From contig PFET01000009.1 in the NCBI GenBank assembly GCA_002793855.1, forward strand, positions 87,749 to 149,007: DNA of 61,259 nucleotides, given 5' to 3'. The stretch is from Candidatus Uhrbacteria bacterium CG10_big_fil_rev_8_21_14_0_10_48_11 (GTDB lineage: Bacteria > Patescibacteriota > Patescibacteriia > GWA2-46-9). A program made the position numbers and the translations under genes. Under the pieces are notes generated by a model, which was given only the letters and a program-made list of their open reading frames with translations, ran no database searches and was not told the origin of the DNA. Of the stretch, positions 36,138 through 60,227 are shown in pieces (position 1 is the first letter of the stretch; every line of letters begins with the position of its first letter).

Positions 36138-36355
36138 TGAAAGAATTTGAAGATCTCACATGGAAGGGGGGGCGCCGCCTCATGAGGCAATGTCTTCTCT
36201 ATGCGGGACTCTTCGCCATCGTAGCCATCTTGGCACTCCCCTTATCGCATGGAGGAGTGAGCATCGTATCTAAAATGGCAACGATGGCGTGCCTGGCATC
36301 GGCGTGGGCGGCCATGGTCTGCCGTTCGATCTGGCCACCGAGGTCACAACGATGA
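36137..36355 (+). CDS. Small 2-TM protein (array member H, 72 aa)
   Basis: AAGGAGG SD, TAATG coupling and two hydrophobic segments. Confidence 0.65.
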   Translation: MKEFEDLTWKGGRRLMRQCLLYAGLFAIVAILALPLSHGGVSIVSKMATMACLASAWAAMVCRSIWPPRSQR

Positions 36356-36385
36356 CCTCGGTGAAACACAAGGAGGACAGTTCGT

Positions 36386-36433
36386 AAAACCGGCGGTGTC
36401 GCAGCTCAAAAAAGAGTTGCACCCGCCGGTTTT
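36386..36433 (+). terminator. Hairpin terminator closing the array
   Basis: Outer stem AAAACCGGCGG ... CCGCCGGTTTT with an inner stem. Confidence 0.7.
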
Positions 36434-36472
36434 CATATACGCTCCATTCTCTTCACGCCTGCCCAACATACA

Positions 36473-44194: not shown

Positions 44195-44209
44195 ACCAGT
44201 AAGTATACA

Positions 44210-45460
44210 CTATTCGTAACGTAACGCCTCTATGGGGTTTTTCCTTGCCGCTTGACGAGCTGGATACAGTCCAAAAATGAGTCCTACAAGACCAGACACA
44301 ATTAGTACCAAACTGGTGGCAAGTACCGGTATGGTAAACGGCCAAGTTAAACCAAGCACTTGAGTGATAATGATTGAAGCAAGAAAGGAAAGACCAAGAC
44401 CAATACTGATACCGATTAGCCCACCAAGACCCGTTAGTATAACTGCCTCCAAAATAAACTGTGTTAAAATGTCGCGCTCTGTTGCCCCGACGGCTTTTCG
44501 TAAGCCAATTTCTCTCGTTCTCTCGGTGACCGAGACCAGCATAATGTTCATAACACCAATACCGCCAACGACGAGTGAAATGGCAACGACAGCCGAAAGA
44601 AACACGGTAAGAATCCCAATAATGTTGCCCACCTGACTAATGAGTCCTTCGGGAGTGACCACAAAAAAATCGTCTTTGGTAGGATCGGTGATATTATGCG
44701 AAGCGCGCATAGTCGCCTCAACATCAGTAACGGTGCGCTCAACATTCTCTGCTTGATCTACTCGAATTAAAACCTCGTTATAAAAGTCGATGCCAAGCAG
44801 GTAGGTGCGGGCGGTGGTATAGGGAAGAATGACAAGGTCGTCGATATTAAAAAACGCAACTTGCCCTTTAGGCGGATACACTCCCACAATGCGGAAGGTC
44901 TTATTCTTTATCGTAATGATTTTACCGACTGCATCATCGAGCCCAAAAAGTTCCCGCTTAACCTTGTCGCCAATAACTGCAACGCTTGCGTTCGAACGTA
45001 TATCAGTATCGTCAAGGATGGTCCCCTTGTCGGGATAGACATCGAACATCTTTGATAAAAATGCTGCCGACCAGCCAATAACCTGCGCGTTGCGATAGGT
45101 TTCCCCTTGGTAAGCAACTGACCCCGGCACAATAAGCGCCGGTGCTATGTCTGCAAGATGTGGCACATTGCTTTTCCTCGAAAGCGCCTCAACATCTCGC
45201 TGTTTAAGCGAATCAGCAAATAGCGTTCCGGCGATATCTGATGGCCCCGTCGGTTCACGACCCGGACGAACCACGACAAGCTCCGCGCCGGTACCGGAGA
45301 GCTGACCTAAAATCAGCTCCTTCGAACTCTGCCCAACCGAGGCAATGACCATAATGGAAGTAATGCCAATGACGATGCCAAGAATAGTAAGACCAGAGCG
45401 CGATTTGTTAGCGCTAATACCACGAACGGCTGTCTTAATAGTGTTGGTGATTTTAGTCAT
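44210..45460 (-). CDS. ABC transporter permease, MacB/FtsX family
   Basis: RSGLTILGIVIG, GGIGVMNIMLVSVTERTREIG-x-RKAVGA and GLYPA-x-x-AA-x-x-NPIEALRYE motifs. Confidence 0.95.
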   Translation of the reverse strand: MTKITNTIKTAVRGISANKSRSGLTILGIVIGITSIMVIASVGQSSKELILGQLSGTGAELVVVRPGREPTGPSDIAGTLFADSLKQRDVEALSRKSNVPHLADIAPALIVPGSVAYQGETYRNAQVIGWSAAFLSKMFDVYPDKGTILDDTDIRSNASVAVIGDKVKRELFGLDDAVGKIITIKNKTFRIVGVYPPKGQVAFFNIDDLVILPYTTARTYLLGIDFYNEVLIRVDQAENVERTVTDVEATMRASHNITDPTKDDFFVVTPEGLISQVGNIIGILTVFLSAVVAISLVVGGIGVMNIMLVSVTERTREIGLRKAVGATERDILTQFILEAVILTGLGGLIGISIGLGLSFLASIIITQVLGLTWPFTIPVLATSLVLIVSGLVGLIFGLYPARQAARKNPIEALRYE

Positions 45461-46146
45461 CGGATTTTTGTATCCGTCGCAATCCGCCCATCCATGATGC
45501 GGATAGTTCGGTCTGCGTAGGCGGCAATATGGTCGTCATGCGTAATTACGAGAACGGTACGATGCTCGTCGCGATTCAGCTTTGTGATAATCTCCATAAT
45601 ACTTTTACCTGAAGCCGAGTCGAGGTTACCCGTCGGCTCGTCGGCAAGCAAAATTTCAGGCTCGTTAATGAGCGCACGGGCAATGGCGGCTCGCTGCATC
45701 TCGCCGCCAGATAGCTCTGAGGGTTCATGCTCTAAACGATGCGCGAGGCCAACAGCCGTCAGCGCCTTCTTTGCGCGTTCGTCCCACTCGGCACTTGGTA
45801 CCTCAGAGTACGCTAATGGCAATTTTGCGTTTTCTAAGACCGTTGTTCGCTTAAGTAAGTTAAAGGCTTGAAACACAAACCCTATTTTTTTATTGCGTAT
45901 ACGCGCGCGTTCAATTGGCGAATAGCTCGCAAATGTTCGGCCTTCAAATTCGTAGACTCCCCCTGTTGGTTCGTCGAGAAACGCTAAGATGTGTAATAGT
46001 GTTGACTTTCCGGAACCGGATGGCCCCATGATTGCCACAAACTCCCCTCGCTCGATAGAAAAGGTAATATCGTGAAGCACCGTCGTTTTGACACCTTAGC
46101 CAAAGTAGGTCTTCGAAAGATTTTTGGCACTGATGAGAGGTGTCAT
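45457..46146 (-). pseudogene. ABC transporter ATP-binding protein (MacB/LolD-like) with in-frame TAA at codon 17
   Basis: MTPLISAKNLSKTYFG*GVKTTVLHDITF, with TAA at 46096-46098. Walker A (GPSGSGKST), signature (LSGGE) and Walker B (LADEPT) are intact downstream. Confidence 0.8.
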
Positions 46147-46170
46147 GGGCAGATAACATGCCCCAATGGC

Positions 46171-47913
46171 TTAATTCTTAATCTCGTTAACAATAATTTG
46201 ATCACCTTCGCTAATGCCGCTCGTTACTTCTATGTTGCCCGTTGAACCACGAAGTCCTGTTTCAATCTGTACCGTTTCAGGAAGACCATTTTTAAGTACC
46301 CGAACTGCTCGTTGACCATTATCAGTAAACACGGCGCGTTGCGGAATAATGATAGCGTCAGTACGGGTGCCACTCATAATGGTTACGTTTGCGGTCATAC
46401 CTGAGCGAACACGCTCGTCAGGTGTCGTAAATTGCAACACCACCCGATAGGTAGAAACGCCCTCGATAACGGTTTCTGCTGGGTCGATGCTACTAATAGT
46501 CGCGTCAAACGCCACTTCGTCACCATAAGCATCGAGCGTCACCGTTGCTGTGTCGCCAACATGCACTTTGGCAATGTCTGCTTCTGGTACGTAAGATTTA
46601 ATTTCAAAAGTAGCTTCAGAAATAAGTGCGATAGCAGATGCGCTAGACGCGACAATTTCACCAGCAGTGACGTCTCTAGCGGTAACAACACCATCAATGG
46701 GCGAACGCAATATTGACTTACCATACTCTGCGTCCGCGCTTGCAAGGTTGGCGTTGGCACGATCGATCTCTGCCTTCTGCGATGCCACACTTGCTTCCGC
46801 TTGTCGTACCGCAGCTTCTTTTGCGGCCAACTGCTCGGCGGTTGGTCCAGAGAGCGTAATGCTTAGTTGATCTTTAGCAACCGCAAGCGCTTGCTCGGCA
46901 TCACTTACTACTGCCGTCGCTTTTGAAATAACAGCAGTATTGCTTGCCTTTTGTGCGGCAATGGCCTGCTGCACACCAGTAACGCTGGAAATAGCGGTAT
47001 TTACGTTTGAGCGCGCGGTATTAAGACTAGTTCGATACGACGTTTGGTTAGCCGCCGAAAGACTGGTAGAAACGTTGATGGTGTCATTCAGCCTCGATAG
47101 AAAATCTCGAATGGTGCTAAGCTTCGCTGCCGCCGCAATTAACGCGCTATCAACCGCTGCCTGATCAGTAACACTAACGTCAGCAAGCGACTGCAAGGAT
47201 GCCAAAATAATACCGGAGGTAAGCCTCCCCTGCTCCGAATCTATTTGCGCCTGACTATCAGCCGTCACAAAACTCAACTTAGGATTATTCGAGGCGTCAT
47301 CGGTAAAGAAGTCATCAATCTGTTTATTCACCGCATCGTCTGCCTCGCGGTACGCCTCATGAAGTGCGTCTACGGCGTCACCGTAGCCGTTTGCCAAATC
47401 GGTGGTCGCGGTTACTTTGGTGTTTGCAAGAGAAACCCTTGCGTCACTTACTGTTTGTTCAGCTCGGCTAACCTGTGTTTTTGCTAGTTGTATTTGTTCT
47501 TGAGTAGAACCCTGTTTTAGTTCTGCTAGTTGTGCCTGTGCAGTATCAAGCGCTGCCTGGTACTGACCAAGGTGGGCTGTGGCACTCGCCACTGCCGCGC
47601 GCGCTTCTGCAATACTGGCACTTTGGGTTGCTGCCTCTAACCGAACCAGAGGCGCATTCTTTTTGACGTGGTCACCAACTTTTACCAGCACCTCGGCAAC
47701 CCGACCACCGCGCTCAAAGGCAAGAGTCACATCGGTCGCCGCCTCTACGTGACCCGTTACGTCAACGGTCTGCGTGATAGTGCCACGTATTGCCGTTGTG
47801 GTTTCGTATGTTGGTCCGGATGACCTGCCAAACTGCAAATAGGCAACACCACCAATGACAACCAAAACGGCAATACTAATAACAATCTTAGTTTTCGAAA
47901 AAGCTAACTGCAC
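46171..47913 (-). CDS. Efflux RND/MacA-type periplasmic adaptor with long coiled-coil insert
   Basis: V-x-VGD-x-VKK-x-x-PL-x-x-L lipoyl half-motif, LRSPIDGVV, V-x-EADIA and GM(T)ANV motifs. Confidence 0.88.
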   Translation of the reverse strand: MQLAFSKTKIVISIAVLVVIGGVAYLQFGRSSGPTYETTTAIRGTITQTVDVTGHVEAATDVTLAFERGGRVAEVLVKVGDHVKKNAPLVRLEAATQSASIAEARAAVASATAHLGQYQAALDTAQAQLAELKQGSTQEQIQLAKTQVSRAEQTVSDARVSLANTKVTATTDLANGYGDAVDALHEAYREADDAVNKQIDDFFTDDASNNPKLSFVTADSQAQIDSEQGRLTSGIILASLQSLADVSVTDQAAVDSALIAAAAKLSTIRDFLSRLNDTINVSTSLSAANQTSYRTSLNTARSNVNTAISSVTGVQQAIAAQKASNTAVISKATAVVSDAEQALAVAKDQLSITLSGPTAEQLAAKEAAVRQAEASVASQKAEIDRANANLASADAEYGKSILRSPIDGVVTARDVTAGEIVASSASAIALISEATFEIKSYVPEADIAKVHVGDTATVTLDAYGDEVAFDATISSIDPAETVIEGVSTYRVVLQFTTPDERVRSGMTANVTIMSGTRTDAIIIPQRAVFTDNGQRAVRVLKNGLPETVQIETGLRGSTGNIEVTSGISEGDQIIVNEIKN

Positions 47914-47921
47914 AATGATAC

Positions 47922-48380
47922 CTAATGCAGATAACGGCTACGGCGGCGCCACTTAAATACCAACCAGCGATCTAACCCCCAGATTTCACCAGCACGAAGG
48001 GTAATTAGTAGCCCAAGAGCCATGATATAAATAATATGTTGATCAATTAAAAACCCATTACTCACGTAGGGAAAGTTCAGCCCAGGTAAATAGTAAAGCA
48101 GCATCAGTAGCATACCGAGCGAGCCAGCGAAGCGTACAAAGACACCCAAAATTAGTGCAATGCCAAGCAACGTTAACCCCCACTCGTTTATCAGGTTTAC
48201 CCAGCCAATATTGAGGGGTGTTGCAAGCCATGCGTAAAGCGCAGGAAAGGTGTTGGCGTTTGCTAAATAACCGGCGGCAGACCAAGATGCGTTTGTTAAC
48301 TTCGAAATACCGGCATACAAAAAGAGCGACCCTAAAGTGAGACGCAGTAGTACTAACCAAACTTTTGCAAAACGTGTCAT
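47922..48380 (-). CDS. DoxX/DoxD-like membrane protein
   Basis: LLRLTLGSLFLYAGISK, G-x-ALILG-x-FVR-x-A and GLDRWL motifs. Confidence 0.85.
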   Translation of the reverse strand: MTRFAKVWLVLLRLTLGSLFLYAGISKLTNASWSAAGYLANANTFPALYAWLATPLNIGWVNLINEWGLTLLGIALILGVFVRFAGSLGMLLMLLYYLPGLNFPYVSNGFLIDQHIIYIMALGLLITLRAGEIWGLDRWLVFKWRRRSRYLH

Positions 48381-48441
48381 AGGATAGAATTAATTCGTCG
48401 TCATTTTACCAGAATTGCCCTAATTTTGCAAGCCCCAGAAG

Positions 48442-48939
48442 TTACTGCTTTTCCCAACCGATAATAGGATGTATTTCCCACCAGTTGTGGGGAATATCAA
48501 AGCGGGTCAGACCCCAAAGGCGAACGGTGTCACCAAGCTTCGGCAGCTCCATCGGAATCTCCGGAATGCCCTCGGTGACGAGCGGCAACCCAAAAGAATC
48601 ACTAATAATAACGTGGTAATCCCCGTCAGGATCTTTTACTACTTCGGTTACCTTACCAACAACGCTGACTTTCGTTTTAGCGGAACCATTGATGATGTAA
48701 CTCGTCAGGTTGGTATCATGATAGAGCAAGTCTTCTTCTACCCCTTCCCCTTTTGTGACAAAAAACGATAGCAAACGTGAGAGTGGTCCGGGAATAGTCG
48801 CACGTGGGTTCACCGTTTGACTGCGAATATAAAATCCAAGCACACCACCAAGTCCAAACATAACCACAAACAAAACAGCCAGTACCGCTTTTCTCTTCCT
48901 TGTGGATTTACCAATGTGCTGTGTAATGATTTTTAGCAT
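48442..48939 (-). CDS. Membrane-anchored protein with OB-fold-like C-terminal domain
   Basis: A TM segment followed by DGDYHV...WWEIHP. Confidence 0.6.
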   Translation of the reverse strand: MLKIITQHIGKSTRKRKAVLAVLFVVMFGLGGVLGFYIRSQTVNPRATIPGPLSRLLSFFVTKGEGVEEDLLYHDTNLTSYIINGSAKTKVSVVGKVTEVVKDPDGDYHVIISDSFGLPLVTEGIPEIPMELPKLGDTVRLWGLTRFDIPHNWWEIHPIIGWEKQ

Positions 48940-48988
48940 ACGATTATTTCCTAAAGCATAACACGCACTGAATCAAAAACGAATACTG

Positions 48989-49906
48989 CTAAACAACAAA
49001 GGAGGGCACGCCCACTGGCTGCCGACGCGTCAGTAGCCATGCACCAAAAATCATCGGCACAATACCGGCTAACTGCCACACCGTTGGTACCTCGTGCAAA
49101 ATGAGATACGCAAAAAGTAAAGTCAACGCCGGCGCTACCGACCCTAGCCCAAGAGCCTTAGCAATACTAATTCTGTGAATACTTTCAATCCAAAACACTT
49201 TTGCTAGGCCCAAAAACAAAACACCGTTAATAATAAGAAATGGCAAAACGCTGTACACCTCGGGTGCAGTTGGTAGTGGAGAAAAAAGTAAGGCAATACA
49301 AAATAAAAGAAAACCTCCAAAAAGACTCCTCATGCATAAGATGTACGTGGCACTAACCAGCATACGAGCACGACGCGTAAAATAATTGCCGATTGGAGGG
49401 ATAGCCGTCGCAAGCACCATGAGAATGTCGCCGAGATGAAAATGATAGCTAGCACCAGAAAGTACAATGAGCGCCCCAAGCGCCATCATTACGGTACCGA
49501 CGACTGTCAGCCGGCCGTAAAATTCTTTGCCCAATCTCCCAAGGATACTCATGGTAAAAAAGATTTCCATAAGCCCTAGGATAGCTGCGTTTCCAGCGGT
49601 GGTGTAGTGAAGCGCAATAAAAACCAGTCCGTAAAAAGCAACCGCATTCGTAGCAATGATAAACACCATATCACGCCACGCCTCGCGAATACGTACGTAA
49701 TGCCACTCTTTACGAACAGTGATAACACCCAAAAGAAAAAGTCCAGCCCAAAAAGCACTGAACGCCGCCGCGTAAAGTGGCGCAATGGTCGCAAAACTTA
49801 GTATTGAAACAATCGGGAAAAACGACCACAACAATGCATGAAAAAACACGTAGTACTCCCCCACCTGTTCTTTGTGAGGGGCAAGAACAAAACGAGCACT
49901 AATCAT
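48989..49906 (-). CDS. DMT/EamA family transporter
   Basis: About ten TM segments in two repeats, with ALHYTTAGNAAIL. Confidence 0.85.
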   Translation of the reverse strand: MISARFVLAPHKEQVGEYYVFFHALLWSFFPIVSILSFATIAPLYAAAFSAFWAGLFLLGVITVRKEWHYVRIREAWRDMVFIIATNAVAFYGLVFIALHYTTAGNAAILGLMEIFFTMSILGRLGKEFYGRLTVVGTVMMALGALIVLSGASYHFHLGDILMVLATAIPPIGNYFTRRARMLVSATYILCMRSLFGGFLLFCIALLFSPLPTAPEVYSVLPFLIINGVLFLGLAKVFWIESIHRISIAKALGLGSVAPALTLLFAYLILHEVPTVWQLAGIVPMIFGAWLLTRRQPVGVPSFVV

Positions 49907-49921
49907 GCAAACGGACGACGC

Positions 49922-50176
49922 CTACTTCTTGGCGATTTTCTTTGCGGCCTTACGCTTCTTTGCCTTTTTGACTACCGTTCGGGCGGCAAGCAATGCCGCC
50001 AGCCCACCCAACGCGGCGGCTGCCTTGTTACGAGCTTCAGGGTCGATTGCCTCGTAGCGTTCTCGACCATGTTTGATAAGGGCTGCAACGTCTGCACCCA
50101 CTTTGCCAAGCTGGGTTCTAAGCTGCTTTAAATCAGCTTCTGCTTTCTTCATGGTCGAACTTGCTTTCTTGTTCAT
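49922..50176 (-). CDS. Small basic protein, loosely DUF883/ElaB-like
   Basis: N-terminal coiled segment, a small-residue hydrophobic segment and a K-rich tail. Confidence 0.5.
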   Translation of the reverse strand: MNKKASSTMKKAEADLKQLRTQLGKVGADVAALIKHGRERYEAIDPEARNKAAAALGGLAALLAARTVVKKAKKRKAAKKIAKK

Positions 50177-50236
50177 AAAAAATTAAGTTAACAATGCTTA
50201 AAGTATACTCGTTCTGTTTAAAAAAGCCACCTCAAA

Positions 50237-50750
50237 CTAGGTCTCCTTTTCGGTAGATTCTGCCATCTGAAGAAATGTTAAATCTCGCAGTCATATAAAC
50301 TTACCTTCATAATTTTTAATCGTGCTCTCCTCTTCTTCTAAGATGCCCACGCGTCAGAAAGACTTACCCACTGAGGCGTAAAACCATCTGCTGCTTCCTC
50401 ATCTGCTTCGAGATGCGGCATACCTTGTTTGTGAGTTTACTTGGGATTATGATAGTCAAGGACTGTAATAACTTTTCTAGTCCTTTTGCTTGACGAAAAT
50501 AATCGGCAGCAATCTTTATAACATATCTCTCTTGCTGGCGAGCGGACAATTTTTCTCAATCTCTGCGCAACCGTTCAACATCGCGCTCAATAAAACATTC
50601 GTAGTTGAGGTCGTCCTTGAGGTAGCAAAATGAACGCAACCATCTTCCGGTCAAACGAATACACGCATCACGTGCATCATCATTAAGCCGTGTCCACACA
50701 CGGACAGGCAATTCATTCCAGACGCCCAAAAGGGTTACCGCTGTTTTCAT
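50237..50750 (-). pseudogene. Degraded gene remnant(s); the 3' part resembles a NUDIX-hydrolase C-terminus
   Basis: TACTGT-N7-ATG 50750 and an in-frame TGA at 50556-50558 (RRD*EKL). Frameshifted pieces read GFTPQWVSLSDA and GILEEEESTIKNYEGKFI*LRDLTFL. Confidence 0.35.
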
Positions 50751-50888
50751 ATTTAAGACAGTAACCTATTCGCAACCTTACAAAAAACCTTAAACAATAA
50801 ACAACCAATTCGCTACTTCTTTGGTTATTCCTTTTACCGCAGTACCCATTCTTAAAAAGTATACAGCTATAGTACGACAAGCGCTGCA

Positions 50889-52727
50889 CTAGGTAGCGCT
50901 CTCAAATGACAAACGAAGCGCGTTTATAATAACAATAACATCAACAACCTCTTGTAGTACCGCACCGGCAACGGGTGGAATATATCCAAACGAGGCAATG
51001 ACCATAAGACCAATACTTAACCCCATACCAATACCGATGCTTTGCTTTGCTAGCTGAAGTGAACGTTGGGCGATATGCACCGCGTCATGAATTCTAGCCA
51101 CACCATCACCGCTAATCACAATGTCCCCTGTTTCAGAAGCCGCCGTTGCGCCACCATGCGCCATGGCAATGCCAACAGAGGCAAACGCCAAAGCGGGCGC
51201 ATCATTAATACCGTCACCAACCATTGCTAGCGGGCCGTACTTTTCTTGCAATTTTTTGACCCACATTACCTTGTCCTCAGGTAGAAGCTCGGCGTGAAAT
51301 TCTTTAACGCCAACCGCAATAGCCGTTTTTTCTGCAACTGCATGTTTATCACCTGTTAACATGACAATTTTTCGCATGGCATGCTCGTGCATTTTTTGAA
51401 ACAAATCATGAACGTCAGTACGGATAACATCCGCAAACGTAATATAGCCAAGAATAGCTGTTTCACTTGCCAGGCAAACAATTGATAAGCCTTCATTGCG
51501 CGCTATCTCTTCAAGTTCGGCAAGCTTGTCTGGAATAGGCATCTCGTTTTTTCTCATGAAGCCCAGAGAACCAACAGTGTAGGTCACGCTATTAATCGTG
51601 CCACTGGCACCATGGCCGATGATTTCAGAAAAATTTTCTGGATACACCAACACTGCTTGCCGTTGTTGAGCCGCCGTTACGAGCGCTCGGGCAAATACGT
51701 GTGTTGAAAGCTGATCAATGGACGCAGCGAGCTGTAAGATAGCATCTTTAGGTAAACTCCCCAACTGTACGATGCGAACGACTTCTGGTTTGCCAATGGT
51801 GAGCGTTCCTGTTTTGTCAAAAATGAGACCGCGAACACGTGCGAGACGTTCTAAGGCAATACTATTTTTAATAATAATCCCTCGGCTTGCTGCTTTGCTC
51901 ATGCCCGAAATCATAGCAATTGGTGCGGCCAAAATTAGAGGGCAGGGTGAAGCAACGACGAGCACTGCAAGCATTCTAACCGGATCACCAGAAACGAACC
52001 AAGCCACCCCAGCCAAAGCAAACGTGGCGATAGTAAATATGCCAGCATACCGATCTGCCAGACGCACCACCGGGGCACGTTTTTCTTGTGCGCTGGCAAC
52101 AAGGCGAACAATTGTTTGGTAGCGACTGGTAGAACTCGTATTGGCAACGCGAGCTGTAAATGGTTGGTTCAACGCCAAAGAACCACTATATACCAACGAA
52201 CCGACGGCCTTACTTACCGGTAAACTCTCGCCAGTAATTGCTGACTCATCGACAGCAATCTCCCCCTCTGTTACGACACAATCAACTGGAACGATTTCGT
52301 TCGGTTTAATAATAATCGTGTCACCAACAGCAACCTCTTCAATGGCAACCTCTTCTAGCTGGCCATCACTCTTTTTTCGGTGAGCGAAATGAGGCGTGTT
52401 CTGTAGAAGTTTTGTGAGCTCAGCGCTGGCGCGGCCTTCGGCGTAGGCGTCAAGCGTTTCTCCCGTGGAAAGCATAAGCAAAATAACAACGCCCGCGACG
52501 TACTGCCCCATGACGAGCGCAGTAACAATAGCAGCAAGCGCAATAAAATCTGCACCAAGCTGACCCGATAGAGCAGAGCGAATAATACGATATGCGCCAG
52601 AGATACCGCCAAGAACAATCGTGACCATAAACACATCATTTCCGAGTGAATGGCTGACAAACAAATACAAACCCCCACCCACAACGGTGCCTATTAGGAC
52701 TCCTGCAAGATGTAAATATTTTTTCAT
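50889..52727 (-). CDS. Heavy-metal translocating P1B-type ATPase (no N-terminal metal-binding domain)
   Basis: TGES, ASPCP, DKTGT, MLTGD, GDGIND and QEVVD motifs. Confidence 0.92.
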   Translation of the reverse strand: MKKYLHLAGVLIGTVVGGGLYLFVSHSLGNDVFMVTIVLGGISGAYRIIRSALSGQLGADFIALAAIVTALVMGQYVAGVVILLMLSTGETLDAYAEGRASAELTKLLQNTPHFAHRKKSDGQLEEVAIEEVAVGDTIIIKPNEIVPVDCVVTEGEIAVDESAITGESLPVSKAVGSLVYSGSLALNQPFTARVANTSSTSRYQTIVRLVASAQEKRAPVVRLADRYAGIFTIATFALAGVAWFVSGDPVRMLAVLVVASPCPLILAAPIAMISGMSKAASRGIIIKNSIALERLARVRGLIFDKTGTLTIGKPEVVRIVQLGSLPKDAILQLAASIDQLSTHVFARALVTAAQQRQAVLVYPENFSEIIGHGASGTINSVTYTVGSLGFMRKNEMPIPDKLAELEEIARNEGLSIVCLASETAILGYITFADVIRTDVHDLFQKMHEHAMRKIVMLTGDKHAVAEKTAIAVGVKEFHAELLPEDKVMWVKKLQEKYGPLAMVGDGINDAPALAFASVGIAMAHGGATAASETGDIVISGDGVARIHDAVHIAQRSLQLAKQSIGIGMGLSIGLMVIASFGYIPPVAGAVLQEVVDVIVIINALRLSFESAT

Positions 52728-52861
52728 AGTTATTCGTGGACAAAGGCTGACTGCTTAATCCTATCACAAAAAGAACGAGAGAGTATGAAGGCTACCGAGC
52801 TAGCCTGCGGTGGCGCACAACAACAAAACTAAAGGTAGTCCTTCCTAAAAAAGATTACCAT

Positions 52862-54106
52862 CTAACAATGCTCCCCTGCTACAAAACCGGTAGTCCAACA
52901 AAGCTGTAGACTATAGCCACCCGACGGACGGTCGATATTGAGCATATCTCCAACCAGATACAGCCGAGGCACCAGCCGGGACTCCATTGTCTTAAAATTA
53001 ACCTCTTTCAGGTTCACCCCGCCCGAAGACACAATCGCTTTGTCCGCACCAAGTAACTTCTCGACAGATAGCGGGGTGTGCTTAAAAAGAATGACAAGTT
53101 TTTTTCTTGATTCACTACGGACGCTATGGTTTGGCGTTTCGTTTTCAATAGCTGCTAGTCTTAAAAGTACTGGCACTAGTGACGACGGTACTAACTTGCC
53201 AAGCACGTTTTTAATTTTCTTATTTATTTCCGCAATAAGTAGTGCCTGCAGCTGAGACTTAAGTATGGTATGATCTACGCCGGGAAATAAATCTAAGGCA
53301 ATAGTTACCTCTCCATATTTTAAAAGTTCTCCTACCTCTTTACTCATATGAAGCACTGTTGGCCCGCTAATACCGACATGGGTAAACAACAGCTTCCCCT
53401 TATAAGCCTCCTGTTTATGTCGGTTTTGAAAAGTGGTGAGTTTTATGTCACTCAATGTTACGCCAGCAAGTTTTTTCACCCACGCATCTTTGATAGCTAT
53501 AGGCACAAGTGAAAAATCATTATCAATAATGTTATGACCCAGTTTTTTTGCTATTTGAAACCCATCGCCAGTTGCTCCTGTTTCTGGTCAAGATAGACCA
53601 CCCGTGGCAATAATGCAAGACTTCGCAAACACAGTGCTACCATCTTTTAGTAGTACTTCAAACTGTTTATCTGTCACCGCAAGATCTGTAACCGTTGCCT
53701 CTGTCCTTACTTGTACGTCGCCCTTTTTTATATACTCCACAAGTACATTCCAAACCGATACGGCTTTATTCGATGCGGGGAAAATTCTTCCCTCGTTCTC
53801 TTCTTTTGTCGCCATGCCGCGACTGTGAAAAAAATTTAGCGCATCTTCGGTGTTAAATTGTGCAAAAGTGGAAAATAAAAATTTATCATTACCTTTGTAT
53901 TTCCCCAGCATGGTGCGGACCTCTTTATTATTTGTCACATTACAGCGTCCACCGCCGGTGATAAGTAACTTTTTACCAAGGGATGCATTTTTTTCAAGGA
54001 GCACAACAGCAAAACCACGCTCTGCGGCGCGTCCAGCGGCCATCATGCCAGCGGGGCCGCCGCCAATAACCGCAACATCAAAAAGTTTATGCCTGGTCTC
54101 TTTCAT
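52862..54106 (-). pseudogene. HI0933/BaiN family flavoprotein interrupted by one in-frame TGA
   Basis: The two track ORFs are one frame: GGGPAG...KKLLITGGGRCNVTN...ATGGLS*PETGATGDG...LLFTH-x-GISGP...SGGYSLQLCW. The TGA is at 53588-53590. Confidence 0.85.
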
Positions 54107-54154
54107 GTATCAAATAATAACATAATCCACTTGCAGTACAGCGTTTTAGCTGAT

Positions 54155-54185
54155 AAAAATCTGGCCGTTCCCAGCCAGATTTTTT
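54155..54185 (-). terminator. Intrinsic (likely bidirectional) terminator
   Basis: AAAAATCTGGC / 8-nt loop / GCCAGATTTTT. Confidence 0.7.
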
Positions 54186-54197
54186 ACTACCTATTTG

Positions 54198-54266
54198 CTA
54201 CTTCTTCGGCTTTTCCTTCTTTGGCTTCTTTTTGTTTCGCTGCTGCGCATTGTTTCCTTTTGCCAC
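54198..54266 (-). CDS. 22-aa basic peptide MAKGNNAQQRNKKKPKKEKPKK
   Basis: GTG start and TAG stop, followed 12 nt later by a terminator. Confidence 0.5.
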   Translation of the reverse strand: MAKGNNAQQRNKKKPKKEKPKK

Positions 54267-54491
54267 AGTATTGAGTTAAAAATGAATAAATTATCAGACT
54301 GTGATTATGTGCCGTTTTCTGCACTCTATTTCCCTATCCACGCATCCATTATACCACTAATGTCGGCTAACTCCTGTACTCTTGGAAAATGACGCATAGC
54401 GCCTTCAGTAAGGAATACTTTTTCCTGCATACTTTTCTGTCATTCTAAAATATACCTACAAAAACCGCATTGCTATCTTTGTCTAACCCAA

Positions 54492-54680
54492 CTAATTCCC
54501 TTTAAGAAAGCGTCCAATAAAATAGGCAGCCGTAACAATAAACAACAGCCACCATAGCCATAGTAGGCCAATGAGGTAATCGTAAAAGTAGAGACCCATC
54601 ATTATGCCCAATGAAATCAAATAAATTTTGATTACGCTAACCTCCCACCATTGAAACACCCACGATCTAAATATTTTTAT
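54492..54680 (-). CDS. 62-aa 2-TM membrane protein with ATA in place of a start codon
   Basis: IKIFRSWVFQWWEVSVIKIYLISLGIMMGLYFYDYLIGLLWLWWLLFIVTAAYFIGRFLKGN*. Confidence 0.5.
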   Translation of the reverse strand: MKIFRSWVFQWWEVSVIKIYLISLGIMMGLYFYDYLIGLLWLWWLLFIVTAAYFIGRFLKGN

Positions 54681-54718
54681 ATAGGTTTCGGCTACTAATA
54701 ACTATAGTAGGGCACTAT

Positions 54719-55266
54719 TTAAAAGTGCTCCTTCAAAGCTTCAAATATAAGCTTGTGCCCTTCACTGTTTGGATGTAGCCCGTCGTCGGTATAGACGTTC
54801 CAGTCTTTAACTTTCTCAACCGTGGCATACGTATCAATAAATTCAGCCTCTGCTTCTTTTGCGACCTCATGAAAAATAGCCGAGTAGTTTTTTGGTCGCT
54901 CGTTGTAAAAATAGACGTCTTTATTTCTCCATGGGTTACAACGCTCTTCAATAAAGGACTGCCGTTAATGCAGACAACGTGAGCCGCATATTTTTTGGCA
55001 ATGGCAAAAATGTATTCGAGGTTAGCACGATACGCTTCTTCTATTACCTTGGGTTTCCCATTTTCTATTCGAGAATCATTACTGCCACTATACAGAAGAA
55101 TGGTTGTATCTTTTTTACGCTCCGGCTTTGCTCTTGCTGCAGTCTCTTGTTCAATTCTTGCCAGTAACCTTTTTGAAGTGTCCCCTGGTATTGCTAAACT
55201 ATATAAGACTCGATCTTATTCTTTTGTTTCAACATGACGGCGCAGCTGCTCCTGCCAGCCGCCATT
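54719..55266 (-). pseudogene. SGNH/GDSL hydrolase pseudogene (5' truncated, nonsense, frameshift)
   Basis: IPGDTS, GSND (block III) and DGLHPN (block V) motifs. There is a TAA at 55216-55218, a frameshift near 54955, and the block I GDS is absent. Confidence 0.75.
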
Positions 55267-55791
55267 GTTACTTATGTTTTTACTATTTTCTTTTAGGTTG
55301 GTTACTTCTTTTTCTAATTTTTCAATATGTCTGTCTCATTTTGCCGTTCTCTCGTCCAATTTTTCTTCAAGCCGATTTGCATGACCGGCTAGTGTTTCGG
55401 CAACAACCATCATTTCGGTTACATCTTCGATGGCTAAAAGTATTATCGATGAAAGCTGTTTTGTTGTGGCTGTTTGCTCAAAATATATTTACCGCGCACT
55501 TAAAATCATTATTTTTTGACCAATACGCGGAAATGCATGGTCAACTTCAAAACCTTTAAAAAAAGTATTCTTAGGCAAAAGGTCTTCAAGAAATTTTCTA
55601 AGTGCTGGTATTGCCCATTGCCCATTTCCTAACTCGTATATTTTTTTGTTCCGTCTCTTTCGATGCCACTTGAAACGTACGATAAAATAGCTCATTGGCA
55701 ACCACACACAAAAATTTTTATCACGTATAAGCAACGGCTCGCGCAGCACGTCTACTACGGTTTTAGTATAGGTCCAACTTTCTTCGGCCAT
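55267..55791 (-). pseudogene. PAS-domain protein pseudogene
   Basis: REPLLI-x-DK...YELGNGQW-x-IPALRK-x-LED-x-LPKN...IGQKIMILSAR*, with TAA at 55489-55491 and a frameshifted LAIEDVT downstream. Confidence 0.6.
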
Positions 55792-56079
55792 ACGCTCAAA
55801 AAACCTTCTTTCAGGGGACTAACTTTGTTTTCAAATTTTGTATGTATTGTGTTCATACTAGTAAGCCGAAGGAATCGTCCTATTATTCCAACTCGCAGGC
55901 TGAGAGGCAACGTGCTACGCTTGAGGTAGCCAGTAATTGCTCTTTAAAAAAAGAAAGCTGTAATACCTTGGTCATGAAGCAACCCACCTCTAAAAGATCA
56001 AAAAGCCCAAAAACAGTACAAACGCCGGCTCACTGTAACCATCGTGTAATTCAACAGTGATTTGTTCGGTTTAACTATA

Positions 56080-56414
56080 ATGACAGCCGCACAAGACAAG
56101 GAACGAGACAGTAGACTAACCTCAGCGCATAACGATTTTGCAAAAGGGCTTAATTCGTATGCTTTTTTTAAAATGCCAAATCAGGCAATAAGCGAAAATC
56201 TGGTACAGGAAACATTTATGAAGACGTGGAAGTATCTCGCCAGAAAAGGAGAAATAGCTACCATGAAGGCCTTATTATATCACGTACTCAACGGGCTTAT
56301 TGTGGATGAGTATAGAAAACGAAAAACAATCCCTCTTGATACGCTACTTAAAAAAGGTTTTGGCCCAAGCGTCAATCCCTCCGATCAGCTTTTTGATATC
56401 TTAGATGGCAAAAT
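56080..56414 (+). pseudogene. ECF sigma factor fragment (region 2 only, region 4 lost)
   Basis: ENLVQETFMKTWKY...ALLYHVLNGLIVDEYRKRK, after which the sequence switches to GH3-derived DNA at about 56415. Confidence 0.75.
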
Positions 56415-57827
56415 GGGATTGATGCCATCCATGGTCATAACAACGTTTTGGGCGCCACTATTTTTCCTCAGGCTATTGGACTAGGCGCCTCAAGGGACGC
56501 AGACTTAGTACGTCGCGTCGCCACAGCAACTGCTGACGAGATGGCAGCCACGGGAATATATTGGAGTTACTCCCCCAACCTTGATGTCCCCCAAGATACT
56601 CGATGGGGAAAAACCTACGAAACCTTTGGGTCAGACACGGCAAACGTTACCCAATTGGGTGCTGCTTATCTGGCAGGAACGCAAGAGTCGTCAACCCATT
56701 ATTTCAACGTCTTGGCAACCGCCAAGCATTTTCTTGGTGGCGGAGCCATGGTGTATGGGACATCACGTAACAAAGATTTTAAAATAGAAGAGGGAACAAT
56801 TACGCTCGACGAACAGGCGTTGCGTCAGGATCATTTGACCCCCTTTAAAAAAGCCGTCAGCGACGGGCTGCAAGCCGTTATGGTAGGTACCGCCACTTGG
56901 AATGAGGTCATCAATCCTGCAAATCATTACCTGCTTACCGATGTCTTAAAAAAGGAGCTTGGCTTTTCCGGTTTTGTCGTTTCTGATTGGTACGCGATCT
57001 ACGAAATAACCTCAGACAAGTATCAATCTATGGTAACCGGTATCAACGCCGGTGTAGATATGGTCATGACACCGTTTGATTACAAAGAGTTTGTAGCTAA
57101 TATGCAACGGGCGTTAGCGCAAGGAGACATAACCAAAGATCGTCTTGATGATGCCGTTCGCAGAATTCTTACGGTAAAATTTGAAACCGGTTTATTTGAT
57201 CGACCTGCGCCAACCGCTGATGGTCTCTCTGTTGTTGGTAGTCAGCAGCACAAAGACTTGGCACGACAAGCCGTTGCAGAGTCACAGGTCTTGCTCAAAA
57301 ATGCAAATGACATTCTACCGCTATCTCCTTCGGTAGGTAGCATTATTGTAGCGGGCTCGGGAGCCAATAACTTGGGTCGTCAGAGTGGCGGATGGACAGT
57401 AGAGTGGCAAGGAGTCGATGGCAACTGGATTCCGGGTACCACCATACTGGCAGGTATAAAAAATACGGTGTCAAAGAGCACACAGGTTGCGTATAACCTA
57501 GACGCCAACTTTCCCTCAGCACAACAAATAGCAGATGTAGGTATCGCAGTGGTTTCGGAAAAACCCTACGCTGAAGGATGGGGTGACAATGCAAATCCTC
57601 GTTTGAGCGATCAAGACCTAATAGTAATCAAAAAATTAAAAAAGCAAAGCGAGAAGTTGATTGTGATTATCATCTCTGGAAGACCACTTGAAATTTCACC
57701 CTATATAAGTAACTGGGATGGCGTCGTTGCCTCGTGGCTCCCTGGCACTGAAGGACAAGGAGTGGCGGACGTATTGTTTGGCCTAAAGCCGTTTATAGGA
57801 AAGCTTCCCATTCGCTGGAATTACTAA
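56415..57827 (+). pseudogene. GH3 beta-glucosidase lacking its N-terminus
   Basis: GIDAIHGHNNVLGATIFP begins at 56415, followed by WGKTYETF, KHF, GFVVSDW, VLLKN and KLPIRW. An in-frame TGA at 56394-56396 precludes a normal N-terminus. Confidence 0.75.
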
Positions 57828-58107
57828 TGCGATGTGCACGACCATCACTAAATAACAGTACTGTTCTAGAACGCTACCTACTCACAAGATACGACAGCGA
57901 TTCAAAAATTAAAGAACTTTTTTCAATAATCTCTAGCATAAACAAAAAAGTCCCGCCCCGACCGGCAGAACTCTTTTGGCAGGGGCTCGTGGAGGACGTT
58001 ACCTGTCCGCCTCTGGCGGAGAACCATTCTACGAAGACAAAGTCGGTACGTTTACGTCCCCGATTTAAGGTCAGCCACTTAATTTACCTTAATATATTAC
58101 TCTATAG

Positions 58108-59247
58108 TTATAAAGATTTTATCCCATCAACAAACCAGAACCTACTAAAATCGTATGGTAGATTTTTGAGTTTATTGAGATGTAAATTGAGTGCCTTTTT
58201 GTAAGTAAACTGTGGATTCAATAAAAGCTGAGTCGCCTTTACTATCTCGGGTATCTTCTTTGTTAAAAGTTTGTCTGTCATGCACGTGGCTTTTTTCCCT
58301 TTACTAAGAAGCTTACAACAACCCCTTGTTACTTCTTCTTTCGCTGGGCAAGAACCACATTCGGGAAGTACTGAATAAAATGGTTCATAATTGAATACGT
58401 AAGCGGGCCATAAACAGTTGGCCAGTTCAAGCCAGGGTGTGCCGATAAGAGGAGAAAGAAATGCAAAACCAGTATGTGGGGATAAAAAGATGTTGATTTT
58501 TTGGATTAGCGCAAGCTGATTCCAAAGCCCTATGTTATATGTGGCTTCAGCATTGGGAAGACTATCTACTAAGTATTGAACATCACCGAGATTGAAGTCA
58601 GCAGTATGAGTTCTCCCGCCTACGCTTTTGGTTATACCAGTGAAGTAGATTTTAAGATTCGGGATAGCTTTGAAAAGTGCTTGGCAAATCTTAAGCCACA
58701 TCTCTATCGTGAGGCTTTGCTTATCTCCTGCTGAGCCGCCAAGCATAATGCAGATTGCAGGCCCAGTATGCTTATATCGTTTGGCAAATTCTTTAGCTTT
58801 TTTGGGAATGGTAAGTTTAATTTTAGGATTAGGCACATAGGCAAGAATGTCGGCGTGCTTACTAAGCAGGTCATGATAATCTTTTCCTATTCTGGCCATC
58901 AAAAGAGGATTTAATACCTTATATGCCCTAATCAGATCGTTTTCATCCCAGTGCGGCTTGAACGAAGTTGATCTATTGTCGGTAATAATGTAATCCCAAA
59001 CCTTGGGTAGCCTTTGAATTAATTTTGCCCTACTGCCGTCTTTCCATATTTCTTTTAAAGATATTGGGTATACTTTCTTGATCCACGGGCAAGCCTCAGC
59101 AAGCTCTACCGGAGAGTCGGCGTTCAACACCAAATGAACCTCAACATTTTTGTTGGCCAGAGCATACCCCCCAGATACTTTCAGGGCTTCTACAACATGG
59201 CCCACGTGTCGATAGTATAGTCAGTTCAAAAGTAATTTTTTCTTCAT
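58108..59247 (-). CDS. GT9 (heptosyltransferase)-like glycosyltransferase with an in-frame TGA at codon 9
   Basis: TATTCT-N7-ATG 59247, then MKKKLLLN*LYYRHVGHVVEALK with TGA at 59221-59223. The C-terminal FLSPHTGFAFLSPLIGTPW resembles the GT9 D(S/T)G-x-x-H-x-A...P motif. The family call is tentative. Confidence 0.55.
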
Positions 59248-59279
59248 ATAAATAAGAATATTCTACCACAGTTCTTCAG

Positions 59280-59438
59280 CCAAAGGCCGATCCACCTCTG
59301 GCGGAAACTCCACGATGCCCTCTCTTTTGTATAGCAAAAAACCTGCCTCCGCCATCCGCCAACTGGCGGAGGCGGATCAGGCAGGTTTTTTGCTGCAGGG
59401 CATCGTGGAGTTTCCGCCAGAGGTGGATCGGCCTTTGG
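59280..59438. repeat. 159-bp nested inverted repeat containing REP-like TCCGCC-N3/4-GGCGGA units
   Basis: Perfect 42-bp outer arms (59280-59321 and 59397-59438), 16-bp inner arms (59333-59348 and 59379-59394) and a central nested palindrome. Confidence 0.9.
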
Positions 59439-59517
59439 AGGACAGTACTTCCACTGCGGGGAACCTACCGGTTCCCCGACCCCTTCCCCAGGTTCGATTC
59501 CACTTTCAACCATATCA

Positions 59518-59552
59518 GAAAAATCCGTCCACCAATCGGTGACGGATTTTTC
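59518..59552 (-). terminator. Terminator after tRNA-Trp
   Basis: GAAAAATCCGTC(C)ACC / AATC / GGTGACGGATTTTTC, abutting the tRNA CCA. Confidence 0.8.
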
Positions 59553-59626
59553 TGGCAGGGGCGGTAGGAATCGAACCTACGACTTAGGTTTTGGAGACCC
59601 GCATGATACCACTTCACCACGCCCCC
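59553..59626 (-). tRNA. tRNA-Trp (anticodon CCA), CCA encoded, 4-bp anticodon stem
   Basis: GGGGGCG/CGCCCCT acceptor stem (G1-U72), G73, anticodon arm CGGGT-CTCCAAA-ACCTA with a C27-A43 mismatch, and T-arm GTAGG-TTCGATT-CCTAC. Confidence 0.96.
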
Positions 59627-59629
59627 ATG

Positions 59630-59685
59630 CGTTGGCTTATTGCAAATAGCTAATAGCATATAGCCAGCAGCTAGTCGCAAATAGT
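59630..59685. repeat. Degenerate heptamer array downstream of the four-helix-bundle gene
   Basis: cgttggc ttattgc aaatagc taatagc atatagc cagcagc tagtcgc aaatagt, with GC at a 7-nt period. Confidence 0.7.
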
Positions 59686-59689
59686 AAGG

Positions 59690-60037
59690 CTAGGAAACGC
59701 TCAAGGCGTTCTTGAACGCGCGCACTCTTTTGATTAACAGCTCCGCTTCGTTGTAGAGCTGCTGTTGCTCATTGGCGCTAATGTAGTTTAATTCTTTTGC
59801 CAAATGAATGCTACTCACGGTTTCTAGGGCTGACTTCATGATGTCTAGATACTTTGCAAACTCTTTGTCGCTTCCACCAGAACCTTCTGCAATATTATTA
59901 GAAACCGACACTGCTCTGCGAAGCTGATCGCCAAGTGCATACCTTTCAGTTTAAGGAAACGACAACGTTACTCGATAAACCTTCTTTGCGTAAACAATAG
60001 CCGATTTCCAAATTTCTAACTCCTCAAACCTAAACGT
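59690..60037 (-). pseudogene. Four helix bundle protein (23S rRNA IVS-protein family) pseudogene
   Basis: FRFEELEIWKSAIVYAKKVYRVTLSFP*TERYALGDQLRRAVSVSNNIAEG. TAA is at 59951-59953, and the likely start position reads ACG. Confidence 0.85.
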
Positions 60038-60040
60038 CCC

Positions 60041-60068
60041 CTCCGACGTGCGACAAGCGCCTTGCGAC
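60041..60068. repeat. Degenerate heptamer array upstream of the four-helix-bundle gene
   Basis: ctccgac gtgcgac aagcgcc ttgcgac. Confidence 0.6.
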
Positions 60069-60071
60069 GTA

Positions 60072-60227
60072 CTATTTCGTCTCCTTGTGCAAGGTGTGTT
60101 TGCCGCACCAAGCGCAGTGCTTCTTGATTTCGAGACGATCTTTGAGCTTCTTCTTATTCTTGAAGCTGTGATAGTTTATGCGATTGCAGCTTGTGCACTG
60201 CAATTTGATGAGATTGTCTTGGGACAT
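60072..60227 (-). CDS. rpmG: 50S ribosomal protein L33 (Zn-ribbon type)
   Basis: Manual translation [51 protein letters not shown], with two CxxC motifs. It is below the track length cut-off. Confidence 0.95.

Follow-up and report, generated by a model that had tools for sequence, protein, structure and literature searches.

A weak-stem tRNA-Trp(CCA) and neighbouring in-frame stop codons as probably unrelated features of an uncultivated patescibacterial genome

The window, a 61,259-nucleotide stretch of a Candidatus Uhrbacteria contig and the whole of the DNA analysed here, carries a tRNA-Trp(CCA) gene with a weakened anticodon stem close to genes that are interrupted by in-frame TGA and TAA codons. 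These are probably two unrelated things that lie side by side, the stops being ordinary nonsense mutations. On this reading, the tRNA would be the normal functional tRNA of the lineage, decoding UGG, and its anticodon stem, in which C27·A43 is mismatched and G28·U42 is a wobble pair, would be a conserved trait of a small groundwater clade of Patescibacteria. The TGAs and TAAs would be recent, fixed nonsense mutations in a genome in which UGA is still a stop codon, and TGG-to-TGA and CGA-to-TGA transitions in a low-GC, decaying stretch (about 44–60 kb) would account for the two testable TGAs.

The gene concerned is the sole tRNA-Trp gene seen in the window:

59553..59626, minus strand: tRNA-Trp(CCA), 74 nt, CCA encoded, discriminator G73 (ARAGORN; Rfam tRNA, 60.3 bits, cut-off 29)

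Its anticodon sits in a seven-nucleotide loop, CUCCAAA, closed by a stem of CGGGU (positions 27–31) and ACCUA (39–43). The top pair, C27·A43 (plus-strand positions 59601/59585), is neither Watson–Crick nor G·U and is marked as non-standard by cmscan; the other four pairs form, with the G28·U42 wobble (59600/59586) directly beneath the mismatch and G29–C41, G30–C40 and U31–A39 below it. A sequence-only reading of the window had described this 4-bp stem, and ARAGORN, Rfam, cmscan and the sequence bear it out. The cmscan alignment places U11–A24 and G10·U25 in the D stem and a G at position 9; the single-sequence minimum-free-energy fold (z = -0.54) is uninformative.

The same anticodon arm occurs, unchanged, in uncultivated Patescibacteria relatives (L129, L130, L131 and L132). 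These represent three further distinct contigs from two divergent relatives, a distribution that points to selective maintenance. Proteins of the arm-bearing relatives are 40–53% (MacB operon), 50% (a 299-amino-acid protein) and 73% (HI0933-like) identical to those of the window, and in L131 two positions of the tRNA-Trp D arm differ while the anticodon arm is the same. Because at least two divergent Patescibacteria share the arm, it is best regarded as a conserved lineage trait of a functional tRNA; the possibility that the tRNA gene is itself decaying was ruled out on these grounds. A phage-borne gene was also ruled out, with no matches among viral contigs. In GTDB, at least 115 species have a tRNA-Trp with the C27·A43 pair. 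A separate GTDB scan with the exact 5′ half of the window's tRNA-Trp gave no match, so a close relative is absent from the GTDB species representatives.

Bacterial tRNA-Trp genes of this kind have been described as a class (NAR 2026, PMC13092985). Among bacterial tRNA-Trp(CCA) genes, 8.9% have the 4-bp stem; 6.5% of standard-code genomes carry this form as their only tRNA-Trp, and C:A is the most frequent unpaired top pair in the Blastocrithidia-like subset. Genomes that have the form use fewer UGA stops, and over-expression of a C27A tRNA-Trp in Escherichia coli raised UGA read-through about 2.5-fold (PMC13092985). The premise of the sequence-only reading, that unpairing of 27–43 in tRNA-Trp(CCA) promotes UGA read-through, is now shown for bacteria too. 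The tRNA of the window resembles the class in its CCA anticodon, seven-nucleotide loop and C:A pair at 27–43, and its host likewise uses the standard code with low UGA stop usage; an rpmG–tRNA-Trp neighbourhood is a further shared feature. It falls outside the strict Blastocrithidia-like subclass, which lacks C9 and A24; its A24, paired with U11, places it in the ‘G24A/A9C’ subclass (2,414 of 3,438; PMC13092985). What the window adds is the G28·U42 pair below the mismatch, a combination absent from 120 sampled C27·A43 tRNA-Trp genes, in which 28–42 is C–G or U–A. It is thus another conserved patescibacterial instance, with an added G·U, of a variant that is widespread in standard-code bacteria.

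Two further precedents help to place the tRNA. In Blastocrithidia, the same top stem pair is unpaired and the proposed mechanism is an enhanced C34·A wobble at UGA (2023 work, via PMC13092985), but there UGA has been wholly reassigned to Trp, in-frame UGAs number in the thousands and eRF1 is mutated (PMC13092985), whereas in the window UGA still terminates translation and a single TGA falls in a Trp column. The Hirsh UGA suppressor, E. coli tRNA-Trp G24A, shares U11–A24 in a tRNA-Trp with a CCA anticodon; unlike that acquired suppressor mutation, A24 is native here and widespread in many bacteria. Judging from experiments on other tRNAs, the tRNA of the window may be somewhat likelier than a 5-bp-stem tRNA to misread UGA, and some low-level read-through by it is plausible.

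Three reading frames in the window contain an in-frame TGA:

58108..59244, minus strand: GT9/heptosyltransferase-like gene, 379 codons, TGA at codon 9 in a conserved Trp column (TGG in relatives)
52862..54106, minus strand: HI0933-like/aminoacetone-oxidase-family flavoprotein gene, full length but for its TGA (CGA/CGG in relatives)
50364..50750, minus strand: orphan frame split into 64 and 63 codons by TGA 50558–50556 (ORF call)

The sequence-only reading had located the second and third of these TGAs correctly (codons 53590–53588 and 50558–50556). A homology search with the third frame found no homologs, and the frame may not be a gene; only the GT9-like and HI0933-like TGAs are therefore testable.

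In the GT9-like gene, the TGA (59220–59218, context AAC UGA C) is at codon 9, downstream of the tRNA, as had been read; the start coordinate had been off by one, the ATG being at 59244. The start had also been called well supported and leaderless. N-terminal conservation supports the ATG, but the promoter scan gives no σ70 site. An extended -10-like motif, TGgTAGAAT, was seen by eye 12 nt upstream of it. Codon 9 is indeed a Trp-compatible position, with 27 W, 3 F, 1 Y and 1 H among the 32 homologs that have a residue there. The gene is intact apart from the TGA and is 69% identical to its best homolog. Its nearly invariant Pro14 is His in the window, and conserved columns are changed at 6 of 106 positions, which lies in the upper third. 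We regard the gene as probably a recent pseudogene; since the excess of conserved-column changes is only moderate, it may still be under selection through read-through or restart. No tRNA-Trp lies near the GT9-like homologs at three loci of relatives (P0002, P0003 and P0005), so elsewhere the two genes are not syntenic.

The TGA of the HI0933-like gene (context UCU UGA C) replaces an Arg. The sequence-only reading had stated that some family members have GGxSWP here; this does not hold, as 32 of the 36 close homologs have Arg there and the other 4 have His. Over 120 homologs the column is at least 90% Arg, with V, Y, I or M in PDB relatives, and Trp never occurs. Conserved-column changes in this gene (12 of 214) are in the top ~5%.

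This pattern is what chance predicts. Given the codon usage of the window, 18–38% of new TGA nonsense codons are expected to arise from TGG and 15–27% from CGA or AGA; the two testable TGAs comprise one Trp and one conserved Arg site. The TGAs are thus no more aligned to Trp than random nonsense mutation would make them, and the tie that had been drawn between them and a leaky tRNA does not survive. Because the relatives have TGG at the first site and CGA or CGG at the second, both TGAs are single GC-to-AT transitions, and sense codons at these sites in intact orthologs are what is expected of pseudogenes. There are ~204 TGG codons against one Trp-site TGA in about 16,000 codons. A Trp-aligned TGA beside a suggestive tRNA is, as a caution, a chance-level observation, since TGG to TGA is among the commonest routes to a TGA.

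UGA, as had been supposed, remains a stop. TGA ends 8 of 46 ORFs (17%, the rarest stop), several of them in ATGA overlaps, and TAG is the commonest (50%); the relatives, too, terminate at TGA. The low use of TGA fits the published link between 4-bp-stem tRNA-Trp and low UGA use. We found no TGA-split genes in positions 1–44 kb of the window or in about 50 kb of the relatives' DNA. No prfB (RF2) was present among the ORFs scanned in the 61-kb window, which is part of the genome only, and ARAGORN found no tRNA-UCA gene in the window.

Ordinary decay is also seen in genes whose lesions a tRNA-Trp cannot explain. Apart from rpmG, the features listed below are TAA-broken, frameshifted or truncated, and lie within 44–60 kb:

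45457..46149, minus strand: MacB-type ABC ATPase gene, otherwise full length, with TAA 46098–46096 at codon 17
54733..55330, minus strand: GDSL/SGNH lipase pseudogene, broken by a TAA (55216) and by a frameshift around 54950
55339..55791, minus strand: ORF without a Pfam family, with TAA 55491–55489
56062..57827, plus strand: ECF sigma factor truncated to region 2 and leading into a GH3 glycosidase, a deletion remnant
59690..60040, minus strand: 23S-rRNA-IVS (four-helix-bundle) protein gene, between rpmG and the tRNA, with TAA 59953–59951
60072..60227, minus strand: rpmG (ribosomal protein L33), an ORF read by eye that marks a conserved rpmG–tRNA-Trp neighbourhood

All four TAA lesions of the sequence-only reading were found, as was its sign of ordinary decay. 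The TAA of the ABC ATPase falls on a non-conserved position, and the L129 gene is intact; the 23S-IVS profile is matched at positions 1–103 of 106 through the TAA. These two genes show the same pattern as the TGA genes, a single stop in an otherwise full-length frame, and because a tRNA-Trp cannot explain TAA, they count against a link to the tRNA. The GH3 glycosidase lacks about 81 N-terminal profile positions. Another relative, L133, is partly syntenic with the window here and has intact GH3 (602 amino acids), HI0933-like, GDSL, DoxX and HlyD genes; its 240-amino-acid GDSL lipase was not aligned to the remnant in the window. Relatives that share the tRNA arm retain sense codons and unbroken orthologs, which also speaks against a link between the tRNA and the TGAs. 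Around the tRNA, L131 keeps the gene order of the window (296-amino-acid gene, rpmG, tRNA-Trp). GC content is 0.40–0.46 at 48–60 kb compared with 0.47–0.525 in the rest of the window.

We infer that the broken genes at 44–60 kb are non-functional. Single nonsense codons, a frameshift, a deletion, a low-GC cluster and intact orthologs in a relative are all features of ordinary pseudogene formation, from which the region departs only in density (at least seven lesions in about 16 kb). It illustrates clearly how recent gene decay can cluster in a reduced genome. What counts against a pseudogene reading is that both testable TGA genes are otherwise full length, each with a C after its TGA. In studies of termination context in E. 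coli, UGA-C is the weakest.

The main alternative, which we judge unlikely, is that leaky decoding of UGA as Trp by the weak-stem tRNA partly rescues codon 9 of the GT9-like gene while UGA is a stop elsewhere. The gene would then yield some full-length, correct protein and stay under selection, and read-through would be expected to produce the peptide beginning MKKKLLLNWLYYR. The position of the TGA on a conserved Trp in a gene that is otherwise intact and 69% identical to its best homolog is consistent with this, as are the low use of TGA stops, an arm weaker than that of any of the 120 sampled C27·A43 tRNA-Trp genes, a U11–A24 pair that is the Hirsh-suppressor state and the effect of a 4-bp stem on UGA read-through in E. 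coli (PMC13092985). Against it, a single Trp-aligned TGA among the two that are testable matches the chance expectation, and insertion of Trp at the HI0933-like TGA would not restore a protein in which that column is a conserved Arg. The TAA lesions have the same pattern, the GT9-like gene has also lost its nearly invariant Pro14, comparable TGAs are lacking from relatives that share the tRNA, and the published gain is modest and was obtained by over-expression only (PMC13092985). A fuller version, in which the doubly weakened stem and U11–A24 act as a UGA-to-Trp buffer that rescues the phenotype of TGG-to-TGA mutations, for example at codon 9 of the GT9-like gene with its UGA-C context, while RF2 still terminates, as an intermediate toward reassignment, appears improbable to us. 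If leaky decoding were true, this lineage would represent a naturally occurring stage partway from the standard code to one that reads UGA as Trp; its phylum has recoded UGA at least twice.

Restart of translation at the in-frame GTG of codon 14 (59205), giving a shortened 365-amino-acid protein with partial function, is a very unlikely explanation of the GT9-like gene. A GTG-initiated ORF (58108–59205) does open four codons past the stop, and bacteria are well known to reinitiate translation downstream of an early nonsense codon, for example in lacI; however, the lost segment includes the nearly invariant L6, N8, Y11 and Y12 and is probably the first β-strand of a Rossmann-like fold.

Genome-wide reassignment of UGA to Trp, of the kind found in Mycoplasmatales and in JAKLIH01, a family of Patescibacteriota, has almost no chance of being correct and is effectively refuted for the window. 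Precedents for UGA recoding do exist in the phylum, to Trp in JAKLIH01 and to Gly in Gracilibacteria/Absconditabacteria, and TGA is the least-used stop in the window. In these recoded lineages, however, RF2 is missing, UGA does not serve as a stop and a cognate tRNA-UCA reads it; in JAKLIH01, that tRNA accompanies a 5-bp-stem tRNA-Trp. In contrast, the window has UGA stops (8 of 46 ORFs, ATGA overlaps included), no tRNA-UCA gene, no excess of Trp- or Gly-aligned TGAs, one TGA at a conserved Arg and ~204 TGG codons against a single Trp-aligned TGA.

It is scarcely credible that the stops arose as errors of sequencing or assembly, or that the consensus took up rare variants. The window does come from a contig assembled from short metagenomic reads, and the region is near the contig end, but a 20-kb Logan contig from one run (X1, depth 15) and several contigs from another (X2, depth about 6) match it with no differences over 44000–59300, and stops identical across two separate runs are not assembly errors.

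Also of interest is a conserved module 3′ of the tRNA-Trp. It is followed in the window by a palindromic element:

59516..59554, minus strand: intrinsic-terminator-like hairpin and U-run directly after the tRNA-Trp, with 14-nt perfect arms, conserved in relatives
59446..59515, minus strand: conserved 3′-flank block, GGTTGAAAGTGGAATCGAACCTGGGGAAGGGGTCGG plus a variable hairpin (blastn, alignment)
59280..59438, no strand assigned: perfect nested palindrome with 42-nt outer and 16-nt inner arms (repeat search)

The flank block is about 89–93% identical to that of L129 and L131. Rfam and ARAGORN gave no match to it, and its sole viral match is to the T-arm of a tRNA-Tyr from a phage, which is unrelated. 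The opposite strand of this flank carries the motifs GGTTCGAxTCC and CUUCAAA/UUUCAAA. The idea that this strand encodes a hidden tRNA-Sec or a suppressor tRNA for UGA was rejected, as ARAGORN and Rfam (including a focused search at E ≤ 10) came back empty and neither a T stem nor an anticodon stem could be drawn. Integration at the tRNA 3′ end, joining unlike halves and so making the mismatch, is also unsupported, because the displaced copy in L129 and L131 spans only about the last 17–20 nt and does not reach positions 42–43. In the window, the flank block is cut short by the palindrome, which is present there as a single copy, breaks assemblies and reaches a depth of 150–500× against a 15× baseline in X1; it looks like a multi-copy, MITE-like element.

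The tRNA-Trp(CCA) of the window probably adjoins the interrupted genes by coincidence: a clade-typical tRNA of an already described kind would here border a decaying low-GC region, in which nonsense codons would have arisen by ordinary transitions. The sequence-only reading had raised a possible link between the two, leaky decoding of UGA as Trp. The tRNA and its surroundings are as follows.

59626–59553, minus strand: tRNA-Trp(CCA), called by ARAGORN and Rfam
59446–59552, minus strand: conserved module in the 3′ flank of the tRNA (7583–7735 in L129 and 5261–5420 in L131, two metagenome contigs)
59280–59438: perfect 159-nt nested palindrome (42-nt outer arms, 16-nt inner arms and a central hairpin)
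59244 (ATG) to 58108 (stop), minus strand: GT9/heptosyltransferase-like gene 3′ of the tRNA, matched by homologues along its whole length
56062–57827, plus strand: ECF sigma-70 region-2 fragment running directly into a GH3 glycosidase with about 81 N-terminal profile positions missing
54106–52862, minus strand: HI0933-like/aminoacetone-oxidase-family gene, full length except for a TGA at 53590–53588

The window covers 61 kb of a 146-kb metagenome contig of groundwater or aquifer origin, which belongs to an uncultivated patescibacterium (CPR), and the best homologues of its proteins are annotated as Sungbacteria, Nomurabacteria or ‘Patescibacteria group’. The tRNA reads GGGGGCG UG GUGA AGUGGUA UCAU G CGGGU CUCCAAA ACCUA AGUC GUAGG UUCGAUU CCUAC CGCCCCU G CCA. 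Its anticodon stem pairs are C27·A43, G28·U42, G29-C41, G30-C40 and U31-A39, with C27·A43 flagged as non-standard by cmscan; the tRNA had been described correctly from the sequence. In the D stem is a U11-A24 pair, which in Escherichia coli results from the Hirsh suppressor mutation G24A, and position 9 is G. The acceptor stem ends in a G1·U72 wobble; another wobble, G10·U25 of the D stem, corresponds to A10-U25 in L131.

This architecture is known. In a 2026 survey of 42,109 bacterial genomes, 8.9% of 38,615 tRNA-Trp(CCA) genes had a 4-bp anticodon stem, 3,171 of these being ‘unpinned’ at the top, and the 4-bp form was the only one in 6.5% of standard-code genomes (PMC13092985). It was accompanied by lower UGA stop usage in 13 of 19 orders, C:A was the most frequent unpaired pair (35%) in a ‘Blastocrithidia-like’ subset, and the 2,414 of 3,438 4-bp-stem genes with C9 and/or A24 were set aside (PMC13092985). 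Over-expression of a C27A tRNA-Trp in E. coli raised UGA read-through about 2.5-fold (PMC13092985). The proposed mechanism, in which an unpaired 27-43 promotes UGA read-through, is thus sound and already in print, and the tRNA of the window is a further member of the published class, in its A24 subclass.

A metagenome scan with the 3′ half of the tRNA, positions 42–43 left free, matched four loci. One (L132) is from the same organism as the window; L129/L130 and L131 are from other organisms, with different upstream flanks and protein identities to the window of 40–53% (MacB-type efflux operon), 50% (a 299-aa protein beside rpmG) and 73% (HI0933-like flavoprotein). The anticodon arm, GCGGGUCUCCAAAACCUAAG, is identical in all four, and the tRNA of L131 has two D-arm differences from that of the window and none in this arm. 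Because the arm is shared by divergent organisms, the mismatch is a conserved clade trait and the tRNA is functional. That the arm is itself a lesion is ruled out by its presence in L129/L130 and L131. A tRNA-Thr(UGU) in L131 (3781–3856) has A·A at 27-43, also flagged by cmscan, so unpaired top pairs are not restricted to tRNA-Trp in this lineage. Nor is the trait rare: a scan of GTDB species genomes for tRNA-Trp with C27 and A43 matched at least 120 loci. Among the matches listed, 115 were confirmed as tRNA-Trp(CCA) by ARAGORN, chiefly from Acidimicrobiales and Clostridia, but also from Streptomyces, Micromonospora, Helicobacter and others. Compared with the matches listed, in which 28-42 is C-G (106) or U-A (13) but in no case G·U, the sole unusual point of the window tRNA is its extra wobble pair, G28·U42.

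The in-frame TGAs differ in what they replace. Homologues of the GT9-like protein begin MKKKLLLNW(L/V)YYRPVGH, and of 32 of them, 27 have W in the column under the TGA at codon 9 (59220–59218), three have F, one Y and one H; relatives have TGG there, bearing out the earlier suggestion of a Trp-compatible site. The HI0933-like TGA falls in the motif ATGG-x-S-(R/H)-PETGSTG, and the supposed family variant GGxSWP was not found: of 36 close homologues, 32 have Arg in this column and the other 4 His, and it is at least 90% Arg across 120 homologues and V/Y/I/M in PDB relatives, with Trp in none of these sets. Of the two nearest relatives, one has the codon CGA and the other CGG. The third TGA, at 50556, interrupts an ORF of 64 + 63 codons for which a homology search returned no homologue, and which may not be a gene.

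A single GC-to-AT transition accounts for each of the two testable TGAs, TGG having become TGA in one case and CGA in the other. From the codon counts of the window, new TGA codons are expected to derive from TGG in 18–38% and from CGA/AGA in 15–27% of cases, the ranges being set by transition bias; one Trp and one Arg site is what random nonsense mutation predicts, and the proposed tie between these TGAs and the tRNA does not hold up.

It is nevertheless conceivable, albeit unlikely, that the weakened stem allows enough UGA read-through to rescue the GT9-like gene in part. Its TGA, like the Arg-site TGA, is followed by C, the weakest context for UGA termination in E. coli context studies. The TAA lesions nearby are likewise single stops in otherwise intact genes, yet UAA cannot be read by tRNA-Trp. 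Restart at a GTG four codons past the GT9-like TGA is a minor possibility.

Coincidence with local decay accords with the wider region. GC content is 0.40–0.46 at 44–60 kb against 0.47–0.525 elsewhere, and at least seven lesions cluster within about 16 kb (approximately 44000–60050): two or three TGAs, four TAAs, one frameshift and one deletion fusion, with no in-frame TAG. From the start of the window to 44 kb, no disrupted genes were found. An ABC ATPase gene has TAA at codon 17 and is otherwise full length, a 23S-IVS four-helix-bundle gene has a Pfam match spanning its TAA, a GDSL lipase gene has a TAA and a frameshift, and an unassigned ORF has one TAA; the ECF sigma/GH3 fusion apparently arose by a deletion that joined two genes. 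Ordinary decay, which the sequence-only reading had allowed for, is probably acting. For changes at conserved columns, the HI0933-like gene ranks in the top 5% or so of its family and the GT9-like gene, with His at a nearly invariant Pro14, in the upper third, mild evidence of relaxed constraint. In L133, from the organism of L131, which shares the arm, GH3 (602 aa), HI0933-like (416 aa), GDSL (240 aa), DoxX and HlyD genes are all intact and partly syntenic, and no gene split by TGA occurs in about 50 kb of DNA from relatives.

Assembly artefact is effectively excluded as the source of the stops, because a 20-kb Logan contig of one sequencing run (X1, depth 15) and the contigs of another (X2) show zero differences over 44000–59300. 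In at least two runs the stops are the prevailing state; contigs mask rare variants, so the sites may be polymorphic. Genome-wide UGA reassignment is effectively excluded by the eight of 46 ORFs that end in TGA and by about 204 TGG codons against one Trp-site TGA. UGA is still a stop here, as had been supposed: TAG ends 23 ORFs (50%), TAA 15 (33%) and TGA 8 (17%), several of the last overlapping the following gene as ATGA, and relatives with the same arm also have genes ending in TGA. That TGA is the rarest stop agrees, in this small sample (n = 46), with the published association. Stop usage looks unusual, although 46 ORFs are too few to test, and a second in-frame stop directly follows two of the eight TGAs (TGA TAA at 9828 and TGA TAG at 40676). 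A new UGA-to-Trp code has been reported in the Patescibacteriota family JAKLIH01, with a tRNA-UCA, loss of RF2, no UGA stops and a tRNA-Trp with a 5-bp stem (PMC13092985).

The 110–150 nt or so 3′ of the tRNA are about 89–93% identical among the window, L129 and L131, compared with only about 40–73% for proteins. This module holds a terminator hairpin, a second, variable hairpin showing compensatory changes, a block (GGCGGAATCGAACCTGGG) reverse-complementary to the T-loop-like GGTTCGAxTCC, and a block (AAACCGAGGGGTTTGAA) that can pair with the T-loop-like first block; L129 and L131 also carry a degenerate second tRNA-Trp 3′ end, TTCTACCGCCCCTG[C/T]CA. It matched no Rfam family and gave no tRNA or tmRNA call with ARAGORN, and could be either the conserved scar of an integration or a small RNA of a new kind. 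In the window it appears to be cut short by the palindrome, which lies between the tRNA and the GT9-like gene. Assemblies break at the palindrome, and its depth in Logan contigs (150–500× over a 15× baseline, 10–30 times local depth) suggests a multi-copy MITE-like element. Elsewhere, the slightly GC-richer stretch at 34900–36450 (plus strand), without an ORF of 120 aa or more, carries several very small hydrophobic ORFs in succession, each with a strong GGAGG Shine–Dalgarno-like motif in front.
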